From NCBI GenBank assembly GCA_951406725.2, contig OX597816.1, forward strand, positions 87,916,001 through 87,980,000: a DNA stretch of 64,000 nt. Reading direction: 5' to 3'. Under the pieces are notes generated by a model. It did no database searches. It had not been told where the DNA came from and saw only the letters and a list, made by a program, of their open reading frames with translations. Positions within the stretch are counted from its first letter, which is position 1. Every line of letters starts with the position of its first letter. Both the position numbers and the translations under genes were made by a program. This stretch comes from Octopus vulgaris. Its lineage: Eukaryota. This document shows, in pieces, positions 685 through 42,838 of this stretch.

Positions 685-1250
685 AGGCGGTGAGTTGGCA
701 GAAACGTTAGCACGTCGGGCGAAAAGCTTATCCGTATTTCGTCTGCCGTTAAGTTCTGAGTTCAAATTCCGCCGAGGTCGACTTTGCTTTTCATCCTTTC
801 GGGGTCGATTAAATAAGTACCAGTTACGCACTGGAGTCGATATAATCGACTTAATCCGTTTGTCTCTTCTTGTTTGTCCCCTCTGTGTTTAGCCCCTTGT
901 GGGTAGTAAAGAAATAGGCATTTCGTCTGCCGTTAGGTTGTGAGTTCAAATTCCGCCGAGGTCAACATTGCCTTTCATCCTTTCGGGGTCGATTAAATAA
1001 GTACCAGTTACGCACTGGAGTCGATGTAATCGACTTAATCCCTTTGTTTGTCCCTTCTGTGTTTAGCCCCTTGTGGGTAGTAAAGAAATAGAAATTTCAT
1101 GTGTATTTACGTTCTGAGTTCGAATTCCACCGCGGTATACTTTGCTTTTCATCCTTTCGGAGTCGATAAATTAAGTACCAGTTGCGTACTTGGGTCGGTC
1201 CAATCGACTGGTTTCCTCCACCAAAATTTCGGGCCTTGAGTAGAAAAGAA
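685..1250 (+). mobile_element. SINE family A trimer: full unit 685-916, headless units 917-1090 and 1091-1250
   Basis: tRNA-like head GGCGGTGAGTTGGCAGAAACGTTAGC with box-B-like GAGTTCAAATTCC; body GCCTTTCATCCTTTCGGGGTCGAT...AAGTACCAG (Nin/Deu-type domain) occurs three times; first two units end in tail 1, third in tail 2. Confidence 0.9.
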
Positions 1251-1359
1251 TTTTTTTCTATTACACTAATGCAGACCAAGGTACATTTTCCAGTATTCAG
1301 ATTCCAGTGGGGTGGGGTTCACAATCATCATCGTCGTCGTCGTCGTCGTCGTTGTTATC

Positions 1360-1510
1360 GCGGTGGATTGGCAGAATCGTTAGCACACCGGACATAATTC
1401 TTAGCGGCATTTCGCCTGCTTTTACGCTCTGAGTTCGAATTCTGCCGAGGTCGACTTTGCCTTTCATCCTTTCGGGGTCGATAAATTAAGTACCAGTGAA
1501 ACATAGAGGT
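1360..1510 (+). mobile_element. SINE family A, 3'-truncated
   Basis: GCGGTGGATTGGCAGAATCGTTAGC...GAGTTCGAATTCTGCCGAGGTCGACTTTGCCTTTCATCC. Confidence 0.85.
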
Positions 1511-3337
1511 CTATCGTTATGATATTGTTGCATCCAACACTCGCCATGCTACTCCTTTCCTTCACTAGCAGAGTAATATACTTATTTTGTTTGTTCTCTT
1601 CATGGTAAATTAATCTTTTAATAGAGAATGTAAGGTAAAGATGAAAATTAAAAATCAGTTAAGATTAAGAAATCTCTACTGTATGCACGTAAACATCTTT
1701 CGATATGCTTATCTTTGTTACTACTGCCTCATAGACAACTGGACGATTAATTCAAACTCAGAGACTGTATCGGCCACATAACGAACTTCTTTTTGCCTTT
1801 GGTGATTTGTAAAAACAATCTTATCACACATTGTATCAGACCGATTCTGCCTGAAAATGTTTGTATACACGTTTGTGGAGTTCACATTCAGCAAAACGTA
1901 GTTGATTACTTAGCAAGAACGATCGTTCCAAATTGATATGCTTAGTTGCATAGGCTCACACACAATTTTTCTTTGTGTGCATGTACTCCACTATCTATGA
2001 TTTTAGTGTACTGTTAGCATTGTTCTATGTCTAAAACTGTTATTACTTTTTAAGTGGTTTGGCTTGGCTAATTCCGATCTAATGCGAATTTTAGTATTGT
2101 CGGTAAGAACATAGTCGATGTATAATTTACTAGAATTGTTTGGGCTTTTGGTCTTCACTTTTTAACTGCTTCTAATTCTTTACAAATAAGCAGTTTCAAT
2201 AGTTCTTTTAGGAATTTGTTTTTATCCACTGAGATTGGATATATGTTATCAGGTACTACTACCTTTACAATATTATCTAGACTGTTTGCATTCATCTCGC
2301 TCCTAGGATCCAAAAGCATATTTTCAGTAACCTGCAATGATTGCTATTTGTCTCACCTGCTTTCAGTACCAATTTGCTAGTATTGTCACAGCTTGTAATA
2401 CATATTTACACTCTTTGTTAAACCCAAGACGAGCAATCATTACACTATACGATAAAACGTTCTCTGTGATCTTCACATACACTATAGTCATTTGAGATCT
2501 CTTTTTCTATAACATTATTCATGTAATCTTTGTTGGTCAGGTATTGATGTCGAGCAGTTATCAGGAGGCCTTTAATGTCAGCTTTTCAATTCATGCTTCA
2601 TATGAGTGGTATGAAATTGTCTGCTCTTTATAAGTCCCGCTTCTTCGACAATAATAGACTACTGGCCATGCAAGAGTTTTCCCCATCATCGGCTTAGCGC
2701 AATCTTTTCAATTGACTTATTTCACTTCGTTTTATTTTACCTTAATCTTATTAATTTTTCTCCAATTGATTCACTTACTTCTCATTCTTCCATTTGTGCT
2801 GAATATTTGATATATTTATTACCCACCACCACCACCCATCGAAAACAGAAAACAATTTCTTATGTTTCATGTTCTTTTAAGTATTTCTGTTAATCTATTG
2901 CCAGCATTTTCGTATAAAAGTTTAGAGTAAACCTGCGTATGTAAATCTTAAGTAGCGAACTTGTAATAACTGGACACCGCTTCCACCATGTTTTCCACGA
3001 TAAATGCAACTAATCAGTCTCTGGTGTTAGGAGGTAATATCGTCATTAATTCTCTTGTAAATTAGTCTCATTAACCCTTTCGACTCCCAATCCACTGCAT
3101 TAGCGCTATAGCATTACTCTTACTAATACGATAAATTCCTATTAATTTAGTCTTAGCATCTAATTAAGGTTAGAGAACTAACATAATGAATTTGTCGTTT
3201 GTTTTTGTTTGTATTTTCTCTTTGGTTCGACAATATGTTATTCTTAGTTATTCCTTCTCACTCTTAGGTATTTGCAGATTTGCTCTAGTTTGACTTTCTG
3301 ATTTCATTATTTTGATTTAACTAATCTAGCTACATGT

Positions 3338-3620
3338 GGAGGCGCAATGGCCCAGTGGTTAGGGCAGCGGACTCGAGGTCGGAGGATCGCGGTTTCGATT
3401 CTCAGACCGGGCGTTGTGTGTGTTTATTGAGGCCCCGGCAGGAGGTGGTGGCGACCCCTGTTGTACTCTTTCTCTCACTCTTTCTTCCTGTTTCTTGAGT
3501 AACGCTGCTATGGACTGGCGTCCCGTCAAGCTAGGGGGTACACATACGCCACAGAAAACGGGAAACCGGGCCTATGAGCCTGGCTAGGCTTGAAAAGGGC
3601 GCATAAATGAATAAAATAAA
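3338..3620 (+). mobile_element. SINE group C, head H1 plus tail T1 (tRNA-Arg-like head, similar to octopus OR-type SINEs)
   Basis: GGAGGCGCAATGGCCCAGTGGTTAGGGCAGCGGACTCG (box A), GGTTTCGATT (box B); tail ends GCCTGGCTAGGCTTGAAAAGGGCGCAT followed by an A-rich tract. Confidence 0.85.
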
Positions 3621-3629
3621 TCTAACTAC

Positions 3630-40430: not shown

Positions 40431-41024
40431 ACTACTCTTATCTAACTTTTCTATGAACTCTATTATCGACTAATTGTCGCAGGCACAAACCATCACCAAT
40501 TTTTCTCGAATTCTGCATTTCGACTTCATGAAGTTTTTGTTAACTTTCTTTCTTTCTTTCTTTCTTTCTTTCTTTCTTTCGTTATATTTTCCTTCATTTT
40601 CTCCCTCACTTTTATCTTTCCGTCTTTTCATTTTTTAAAAAATGTTTATATGTTTGTTACTTTTCGTTTCACTTCCGTGCTTTCTATCCTTTCATATATC
40701 CGTTCTTGATTTTTTTTCTGCCTTGCCTTTCCCCCCTCCAATCTTCAGTTAATCCGTCCGTTTTCTACTCATTCGAGTCAATTACTTCAATCCCTGCTAC
40801 CAGAGAGAGATCTTCAATGAATTACCAGTTACGTTGGCTTGTAGACAAAGAAAACCAACAAGGGTGCCTCTTCGCGACTTGTCGACTTACTAAAAAGTAG
40901 CAGTCGTATCACATTTCTTAACCCGCTCCCTTCTTTTGGATAGTATAATTCTAGAGACATTAAATCTGGAAAATCTGGAATAGCCAAGGCTTGATCACCT
41001 TTGGGCCAAACGACAACAATAATA

Positions 41025-41230
41025 ATCTTTTCTATTATAAGCATAAGGCCTGAAATTTGGTTAGGGTAGGGTGGCTAGTTTATTACATCGATCCCGATAC
41101 TTAACTGGCATTTATTTTAACGAACCCGAAAAGATGAAAGGTAAAGTCAACCTCGGTGGAATTTGAACTTGGAACGTAAAGCCGGGAGAAATACCGCTAA
41201 GCACACTAACGATTCTGCCAGCTCACTGTC
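41025..41230 (-). mobile_element. SINE family A (tail 2)
   Basis: Reverse-complement body AAAAGATGAAAGGTAAAGTCAACCTCGGTGGAATTTGAAC. Confidence 0.82.
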
Positions 41231-42088
41231 TAATGAGATCTGAAGCTTTGGAGGATTTTGTTAGCTGGTCACTTTTGACGAATTAAGTTGGCTTCTCTTT
41301 CTCTTGTGGTCCCACCCTTAGCAAGAATACAACATAGCATTAAAAGTCAACGAAACAGTCTTTATATTTATAACGAAGCCACCGTTTGCCGTAATGAGCT
41401 ACTTCTATGATATATCTATTTACCCAGCTGGACGGTGCCACCCGTGAACATATGAAGTAAGTATATTGGACAAAAATGTAACCCATTTAATGTATGCAAC
41501 AGAAAATGAATCGCTCATATTTCAGTTCGTTCACTATTTGTTCCATTTTGCAACATTACTGTACAATTTAAGCTTAAGAATTTCGTTTTACAATCACGTA
41601 ACCTCGAGTTCGATCCAACTGTACGACATCTTTAGCAAAACTTTTAACATAGTTTTGGGTCGACCTAAGCCTTGTGAATGAAACTGAGTAGACTGAAACT
41701 TTCTTGAAGTTCATTATGGATTTTATTTGTAATCTTAAAGGGCAGCCTTGTCATACTGTGTCACGTTGATTCCACTTGAGAATTATGATAAAAGTACAAA
41801 TCGTTTAGTCCCACAGACATTAAAGTGTGCCGCAGCTGACGGAAAATATTCGTCCACTTACAGATAGGAAATGTCAGCTACTTACATATTAATTCATTGA
41901 ACAAATAGTTCAGTTAATCGAACGACTGATACTCACCCATCATCGAAACAGTGGATATCCACTACTAGAACATATTTATGGCAGTCTTTTCGTATCTGAA
42001 AATCATGAGGGAGAGCAGCAGGCCCACAAGTGGCAATGCACACCAATACTTGACGCTGCAAGGCTTTTCTTTCTGCCTGCGCTTAGCT

Positions 42089-42311
42089 TTAATTCTTTAG
42101 CGCTCAAATTATTCTGACAAATGTAATGTTTATTTATTCACAGTTTCAAATTAATCGGGCATTATCTTATAGCTTCAATATTTAAATGATGTGATTGTTT
42201 AATTTTAGAATGATATTGTAGGATAGGTGTAAGAGGATCTGGATGGTTTGGGTATAAATCAGGGTAGAATATTTGGGTCTGACATGGTCAGTTTAAACAC
42301 TAGATGGTTAA
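42089..42311. mobile_element. About 220-bp MITE with TTAA ends (piggyBac-type)
   Basis: TTAATTCTTTAGCGCTCAAA ... TTTAAACACTAGATGGTTAA: degenerate TIRs bounded by TTAA, no coding capacity. Confidence 0.6.
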
Positions 42312-42424
42312 AGTGAGAATTAGTTCACGCAATTTTATCCCATTCTTTAGACTTCGAAGTATAACTACAGTTGCTCAGCTGGCTGAGCCGGCTACAATAA
42401 CCAGTAAGCTGTAACCAGTAAGTG

Positions 42425-42838
42425 AGCGGTGAGCTGGCAGAAACGTTAGCACGTCGGGTGAAATGCTTAGCGGTGTTTCGTCTGCCGTTACTTTCTGAGT
42501 TCAAATTCCGCCGAGGTCGACTTTGCCTTTCATCCTTTCGGGATCGATAAATTAAGTACCAGTTACGCACTGGGGTCAATGTAATCGACTTAATCCGTTT
42601 GTCTGTCCTTGTTCGTCCTCTCTATGTTTAGCCCCTTGTGGGTAGTAAAGAAACAGGTATTTCGTCTGCCGTTACGCTCTGAGTTCAAATTCCGCCGACG
42701 TCGTTTTTGCCTTTCATCTTTTCGGGGTTGATTAAATAAGTACCAGTTACACACTGAGTTCGATGTAATTGACTTAACCCCTTTGTCTGTCCTTGTTTTT
42801 CCCCTCTATGCTTAGTCCTTGTGGGCAATAAAGAAAGA
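42425..42838 (+). mobile_element. SINE family A dimer (both units tail 1)
   Basis: Junction GAAACA|GGTATTTCGTCTG at 42655/42656; AAC(C/T)AGTAAGCTGTA on both flanks. Confidence 0.9.

Follow-up and report, generated by a model that had tools for sequence, protein, structure and literature searches.

Probable self-targeting of a tRNA-headed SINE in Octopus vulgaris at a fixed position within its own head

SINE multimers in the window

The stretch analysed here (64,000 nucleotides of the Octopus vulgaris genome, contig OX597816.1, positions 87,916,001 to 87,980,000; hereafter the window, to which plain coordinates refer) contains copies of a short interspersed element (SINE) with a tRNA-like head, a body and one of several exchangeable tails. 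Six times in the window a unit ending in tail 1 is followed at once by a headless unit. We consider it probable, at roughly 0.8, that such multimers result from self-targeting, i.e., that young tail-1 copies were inserted at head position 48 of older copies of the same SINE by a Tx1-like enzyme through target-primed reverse transcription (TPRT), with the 5' join aided by homology. All six junctions were located where a first-pass annotation of the window had placed them, at 916/917, 1090/1091, 20293/20294 (-), 32276/32277 (-), 34319/34320 (-), and 42655/42656, and the headless unit begins at head position 48 at each of them, close to the 45 nt that had been estimated. Junction 32276/32277 matches the junction sequence exactly, 916/917 and 42655/42656 each carry one substitution, 1090/1091 and 34319/34320 are diverged yet in register, and at 20293/20294 6 nt of the tail end are duplicated. 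Tail 1 occurs as two variants, b (852-916) and a (42775-42838).

The first multimer on the forward strand is a trimer (head-b-b-2). Its tRNA-like head (686..733), with an A box inside, is followed by a young unit of body and tail-1 variant b (734..916; 4.2% from the consensus of its group) with a B box in its body, by a second, headless tail-b unit starting from head position 48 and with a short deletion in its tail (917..1090; 7.3%), and by a terminal headless tail-2 unit (1091..1250; 11.2%), probably the original target copy. The A and B boxes were recognized by eye; ARAGORN reported 0 tRNA genes and an Rfam scan of four multimer loci gave no tRNA match. Presumably the family resembles the OK/OR SINEs of octopus. 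The dimer at 32111-32507 on the reverse strand consists of a head plus young tail-b unit (32277..32507; 3.1%) and a terminal headless tail-2 unit (32111..32276; 10.2%), and it is enclosed, as was noted before, by a perfect 18-bp target-site duplication (TSD; 5' copy 32508..32525, 3' copy 32093..32110) with no match at the 19th base. Also on the reverse strand, a head plus young tail-b unit (34320..34552; 5.2%) precedes a diverged, internally deleted terminal headless unit (34205..34319, 3' border approximate), and a partial tail-b unit (20294..20436) precedes a terminal headless tail-3 unit (20125..20293; 18% from consensus), an old target copy whose 3' end is found in contigs of two other organisms with a flank that is 9-10% diverged. 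The described order of a tail-1 unit and then a headless unit thus holds at all six junctions, but the unit upstream at 20294 aligns only from element position 96. The last multimer, on the forward strand, combines a head plus young tail-b unit (42425..42655; 3.1%) with a terminal headless unit carrying tail-1 variant a (42656..42838; 9.4%).

As had been remarked, the downstream units vary in tail (tails 2, 3, a, or a deleted body) and in divergence: the four terminal units measured lie 9-18% from the consensus of their own tail group, against 2-5% for complete first units. Apart from the 32111-32507 dimer, the TSD candidates are decayed (670-680/1251-1261 and 42399-42413/42846-42860) or none is convincing. 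A solo tail-b element with an 18-nt TSD (4312..4539, forward strand) represents this element in its non-nested form. Old tail-3 and tail-4 copies make up another kind of multimer; they often lie full-length head to tail in (ATT)n, both in the window (21994-21570 (-) and 58241-58597 (+)) and at loci L161, L169, L189, and L190.

The junction genome-wide and the age of the joined units

The exact 29-nt junction has 20,831 matches in the 2.8-Gb genome and its reversed control 0, and units are spaced by 183-187 nt in 21 of the 26 junctions parsed from the random sample and the window; the junction is, therefore, not due to chance. Exact matches, as listed, often repeat at 184-nt steps. The random sample of 100 evenly spread 10-kb stretches (1 Mb) contained 70 tail-1-like ends, six of a long interspersed element (LINE) and 64 of SINEs. 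Among the SINE ends, 26 join at head position 48, one at position 15 and 37 elsewhere. Junction positions are not scattered, since 24 of the 26 joins at position 48 are in exact register, the other two having small duplications. The fixed head site proposed earlier thus stands, but targeting is preferential and not exclusive, with 37 of 64 ends outside both head sites. Scaled to the genome, 26 per Mb corresponds to an estimated 70,000 junctions. Multimers have the architecture head-(tail-1 unit)n-last unit, with tails 2, 3, and 4 confined to the last unit; in many loci one TSD surrounds the whole multimer, and the head-to-tail partial units lie within one element, as in SINE-derived satellites (sSat). 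Near a contig end (G000:C1:0-5 Mb) exact junction matches reach about 2.5 times the genome-mean density, with arrays of 6 and 10 units.

The ages of the joined units were compared on the random set enlarged by loci with terminal tail 3 (30 of 279 matches) and terminal tail 4 (30 of 54). Divergence from consensus is 5.1% for first tail-b units (non-CpG, n = 127) and 12.7% for terminal units with tail 3 (n = 33) or tail 4 (n = 28), which differ pairwise by 22%, with a minimum of 10-11%; solo copies lie at 14.8% (tail 3) and 17.3% (tail 4). A solo copy is the nearest neighbour of the terminal unit in 39 of 68 cases, near expectation as solos make up 93 of 161. Terminal tail-3 and tail-4 units are, consequently, old private copies. 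Distances among terminal units show no co-variation with those among the units that precede them (for terminal tails 2, 3, 4, a, and b, Mantel p is 0.32, 0.34, 0.69, 0.11, and 0.058, with sample sizes of 44, 39, 31, 39, and 43), and no pair of terminal units falls within 5% of each other for tail 2 (0/946), tail 3 (0/741) or tail 4 (0/465). The downstream units do not, then, form one or two clades that follow their partners. An Alu-like dimeric SINE, in which both units and the outer TSD would be of one age, is likewise at odds with these values, and a few dimeric masters cannot yield such divergence of the terminal units together with the lack of co-variation.

The places where sequence changes from young to old were located by a change-point fit on 53 loci in which a tail-b unit precedes a terminal tail-3 or tail-4 unit (b>3/4), with spliced sequences having uniform switch points as the control. 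In 72% (61-83%) of these loci the young-to-old switch is no more than 12 nt away from the junction, compared to 10% in the control. On the 5' side the old-to-young switch falls in the head, at positions 0-8 in 49% (a bin that includes two-headed loci), 18-26 in 30%, 36-48 in 15%, and 48-60 in 4%. The old-type letter at head position 19 is present in 29 of 51 b>3/4 multimer heads, in 9 of 53 young heads (multimer vs. young p = 5e-5) and in 43 of 50 old heads; multimer heads that carry it are old-like over positions 1-18 (13.8%) and young-like over 20-47 (6-7%). An outer TSD scoring at least 11/12 is found in only 1 of 25 b>4 loci, in 4 of 15 solo tail-4 copies and in 18 of 30 solo tail-b copies; for b>3 loci, ATT microsatellites confound any dating by the TSD (null 19%). 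Because of the old-type heads, the decayed outer TSDs and the switch at the junction, the outer frame of the multimer is an old element, inside which the young unit was placed.

Some loci retain a second head. The pattern old head-site-new head has 52 exact matches in the genome, and among 31 parsed two-headed loci (27 from this pattern search and four others) the site is repeated behind the inserted unit(s) in 24. The 5' site copy (approximately 16 nt) is nearer to the terminal unit in 14 of these 24 and tied in five, and private variants are common to the site copies in L286, L290, L294, and L300. A two-headed locus is the ordinary TPRT product with its TSD. With the old terminal units, the decayed outer TSDs and the mosaic heads, these intermediates uphold the earlier proposal of insertion at a fixed site in existing heads. 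Of 168 multimers unselected for the trait, 13 score as two-headed, about four of them doubtful. The single-head rates are alike in old and young targets (5/56 vs. 8/105), which favours pairing of the heads at the time of insertion as the step that leaves one head. However, minisatellites of 3 to approximately 20 copies have grown out of the head-plus-site segment (64-67 bp) in some two-headed loci (L286, L297/L298, L280, and L276), so that later collapse of two-headed loci is possible too. The first-pass annotation had supposed that the 5' end is resolved by homology and that no second head appears; most loci do have one mosaic head, but the second head stays in about 5-8%.

The 84 adjacent tail-b pairs in 60 arrays differ on average by 0.080, compared to 0.100 between arrays; in five of these pairs, from arrays of 4-7 units, the difference is no more than 1.1%. 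Most of the short arrays have the look of insertions made one after another, and the long ones carry local duplications, by which they also grow.

Insertion site, candidate partner LINE and alternative explanations

Head positions 32-61 (717-746 in the window) form a 12-bp hairpin that includes G-U pairs, with the insertion site located at its loop and 3' arm, and the SINE tail end and the site form a short inverted repeat; the whole-RNA fold of one SINE copy was not better than shuffles (z = -1.17). The target preference was taken from 27 tail-b elements with a clean TSD beginning at the tail end, two or three of which are themselves SINE-related sites. Their TSDs measure 11-22 nt (13-18 nt in 24 of 27) and the consensus of the solo targets is GY/GRTAT (slash, insertion point), a look-alike of the head site, with G at -2 in 13 of 27 (p = 6e-4) and a pyrimidine at -1 in 22 of 27 (p = 8e-4). 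The letters at -2 and -1 differ from the RNA end and thus indicate a preference of the enzyme. The first four site letters of the head are present in 12 of the 27. Solo copies ending in RNA-copied junction letters were considered and dropped, since these letters also occur in the upstream flank and are, hence, TSD. Per Mb the short site motif has 61 copies within SINEs as against 720 elsewhere, and even so the head site accounts for 41% of tail-1 ends; the short motif is, therefore, insufficient for the bias, and longer recognition or RNA pairing is needed.

A second fixed junction, at head position 15 (L221-L250 and L261-L270), has mainly tail variant a, with several tail families among the downstream units. 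Exact matches number 20,831 for b at position 48, 160 for b at position 15, 1,308 for a at position 15, and 480 for a at position 48 (odds ratio approximately 350, calculated by hand). The single fixed site for tail 1, as first described, is the one preferred by variant b; variant a prefers position 15. The join of each tail variant agrees with the letters that read-through RNA would carry, a table that two LINE partners would also give. The young head variant with C for G at position 48 (e.g., window 733 and 34505) occurs in 25 of 68 solo copies and 36 of 171 multimers (p = 0.014); possibly it resists re-insertion.

Approximately 45-60 nt of tail 1 align to the 3' ends of several L1/Tx1-type LINE families in (TATC)n, (ATT)n, and (TC)n repeats. 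The families with such 3' ends lie in different microsatellites (L111, L320-L369, L112, and L182), with some frames open over more than 1,100 codons. The window itself holds, at 57550-58050 (+), a 5'-truncated L1/Tx1-type LINE 3' piece flanked on both sides by (ATT)n arrays; its tail is akin to tail 1, and it has 60% identity to the C-terminus of L111 (tblastn, 57566-57757). L1/Tx1-type 3' ends do adjoin the head site, as the first-pass annotation had proposed to check. A pattern for non-SINE tails at position 48, which requires the site, gave 309 matches, and three LINE-type ends are among the first 100 listed. At L395 a LINE 3' piece adjoins the head site; this piece (L395:1650-2400 (-)) is fused on its 5' side to a SINE tail start, a chimera at the head site. 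At L396/L400 a LINE copy of about 4 kb has a site copy on each side (13/16 alike) and two SINE units stacked in front. Its frames are broken, but an APE-type endonuclease lies ahead of a reverse transcriptase, with RVT_1 at 44.9 bits (cut-off 29.6) and a weak Exo_endo_phos match at 23.3 bits, just below the cut-off of 24.5. A protein search with a LINE C-terminal piece scored 150 of 23,660 candidates, and the 50 loci inspected are of the (TATC)n type where a 3' end was found. The LINE of L395/L396 may supply the enzyme for the SINE, and its domain order and microsatellite-targeted relatives suggest the Tx1 clade.

The following sequence of steps would account for these observations. An L1/Tx1-type LINE enzyme would nick GC/GGTAT in the head (slash, nick), where the SINE RNA would be copied from its tail-1 end, read-through RNA matching the target likely adding specificity. 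The 3' end of the cDNA would meet the matching upstream head and mostly anneal to it, leaving one mosaic head; where annealing fails, the second head would be kept. Each event would rebuild the site, so that units could stack at the 184-nt spacing, and long near-identical arrays would likely be later local duplications.

The first-pass annotation had named as its alternative one or more dimeric master genes, from which multimers would be copied whole with the junction inherited. The single TSD around many multimers, perfect at 32111-32507, fits such an origin, as does the borderline Mantel value for b-b pairs; moreover, none of the window copies read contains four T in succession, which would permit a read-through multimer RNA. 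However, the terminal units, with over twice the divergence of their partners, lack close pairs and do not co-vary with what precedes them, the outer TSDs of b>4 loci are decayed, and two-headed loci contain target duplications. Dimeric masters are refuted as the main source, and we regard copying of whole multimers as quite improbable as the general explanation, although a minority of b-b multimers may still come from them. Comparably improbable, to our judgement, is the spread of the junction without retroposition, by recombination or gene conversion from junction-bearing copies and unequal crossing-over. The near-identical neighbours in arrays of 4-7 units and the expansion of head-plus-site repeats into minisatellites (L286, L297, and L280) speak for such processes, and arrays of this kind are known in reptiles and a clam (PMC10702118, PMC11481361). 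Yet random breaks would scatter the switches over the 118-nt body, in which there are almost no 5' switches, and the clustering of switch points at the junction excludes recombination as the sole cause; it would also leave unexplained the 16-nt duplications with extra letters before the second head and the presence of LINEs at that base. Template switching during reverse transcription, by which tail-1 RNA would be joined to other SINE RNA at a hairpin loop so that the multimer is one insertion, seems to us very unlikely. It would yield one TSD and mixed terminal tails, and the junction does lie at the loop of the head hairpin (seen by eye; one folded copy has a stem-loop at this place), but it predicts young TSDs and wholly young heads, whereas the TSDs of b>4 loci have decayed and over half of the heads have old sequence at positions 1-19, so that it is rejected for b>3/4 loci. 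A ribozyme or rolling-circle (retrozyme-like) origin was discarded as well, as the units of four loci gave no Rfam ribozyme match; a weak HH9 match lies outside the array.

A doubtful but more serious possibility concerns the choice of the site only, and would still need insertion into old copies: pairing of the RNA rather than the enzyme would select it, read-through letters of RNA polymerase III (Pol III) transcripts annealing to nicked matching DNA while the enzyme preference is loose. The tight coupling of tail variant and site, the insufficiency of the short motif and the young-type letters with which some terminal units start are consistent with this, and R1 has been proposed to use read-through 28S letters likewise (PMC2718515). 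On the other hand, the G and pyrimidine conserved upstream of the nick in solo targets lie outside any RNA match, a LINE with a different body occupies the same base, most terminal units are old from the junction onward, and two LINE partners of different specificity would also couple tail and site. A combined version, in which the SINE steers a borrowed Tx1-like enzyme into its own head through its last RNA letters, each tail variant to its matching site, with the 5' join made by pairing with the target head, is put forward tentatively and falls short of being likely.

Returning to self-targeted insertion by a Tx1-like enzyme, several points weigh against it. The 5' site copy is nearer to the inserted unit in five of the 24 two-headed loci. 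About a quarter of the terminal units turn old only 20-95 nt beyond the junction (8% at 20-35 and 18% at 75-95), and tail-b units resemble their neighbours more closely than they resemble units from other arrays. The dimer at 32111-32507 has a perfect TSD despite its 10% diverged terminal unit. Tail-3 and tail-4 loci were picked with exact patterns, which biases them toward less diverged copies. No empty orthologous allele was seen, and the contigs of other organisms break inside the repeat, which makes monomer and multimer unreadable there. For the LINE, the LINE-type tails at the head site number only three among the first 100 listed of 309 matches, and no LINE with the whole of tail 1 was found with two genome patterns, one giving 0 matches and the other 19, all rearranged or truncated SINEs as listed. 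Tail 1 aligns to a (TATC)n-targeted LINE family with a score of 65 and to the two head-targeted LINE copies with scores of 53 and 44; since the former aligns slightly better, the partnership of L395/L396 with the SINE draws on the shared site.

Known systems and significance

The closest parallel is found in crocodilians, where a Mariner element contains the common target of SINEU and Tx1-Mar (Kojima, 2015; PMC4494074). There, too, SINEs and Tx1 LINEs use the same target in an abundant transposon, families prefer different target positions, and serial insertion has produced tandem SINEU-3 copies around a TSD. The target, however, is the DNA transposon Mariner-N4_AMi, the SINE heads derive from U1/U2 snRNA and the TSD lies between the tandem copies (PMC4494074), whereas in the octopus SINE the own tRNA-like head is the target, the site is rebuilt and the joins are mostly seamless. 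An Rfam scan of four multimer loci gave no U1/U2 match. R1 and R2 in 28S rDNA likewise use a fixed site, with a 14-bp TSD in the ancestral R1, and their cDNA has been proposed to anneal to upstream target letters carried in the RNA, read-through 3' letters matching the target (Stage and Eickbush, 2009; PMC2718515). These elements are autonomous and occupy a host gene array, while the octopus SINE is non-autonomous, has its promoter head as the upstream homology and is inserted into dispersed targets. The SINE-derived satellites of squamates (PMC10702118) and the TSD1-(SINE)n-TSD1 arrays of Scapharca broughtonii (PMC11481361) share with the octopus multimers one head, headless units, a complete last unit and an enclosing TSD. 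In the accessible text of these papers the arrays are ascribed to duplication or unequal recombination and a target-site test is not reported; the octopus multimers differ in that their terminal units, drawn from several older tail families, predate the units in front.

Octopus is known to contain the tRNA-derived SINEs OK, OR1, and OR2 (Ohshima and Okada, 1994, cited in PMC4824008 and PMC4758252), which likewise have a tRNA-like head, a common body and exchangeable tails. Self-targeting is not mentioned for them in the accessible parts of those two papers, nor in those of PMC12988792 and PMC3747384. The present SINE presumably belongs to this family. A SINE that targets its own head was not found in the literature searched, a scope outside which subscription papers and the entries of Repbase and Dfam mostly fell.

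Target-specific LINEs with SINE passengers are already known, and the targets described are host RNA genes, microsatellites and other transposons. With the SINE's own head as the target, each insertion restores the site and leaves unique DNA intact, while the new copy comes to lie downstream of a Pol III promoter. The junctions record both ends of insertions into targets that are 10-15% diverged, so that the 5' joining step of LINE integration, which is poorly understood, becomes readable from sequence with regard to the place of the switch, the tolerance of mismatches and the rate at which pairing fails. They also show how retroposition could lead to SINE-derived tandem arrays, for which recombination is usually held responsible, and they allow the SINE families to be ordered by age. 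If the steering of the enzyme by the last RNA letters were to hold, the SINE would be a passenger with a heritable, switchable target that builds landing sites for the LINE that carries it.

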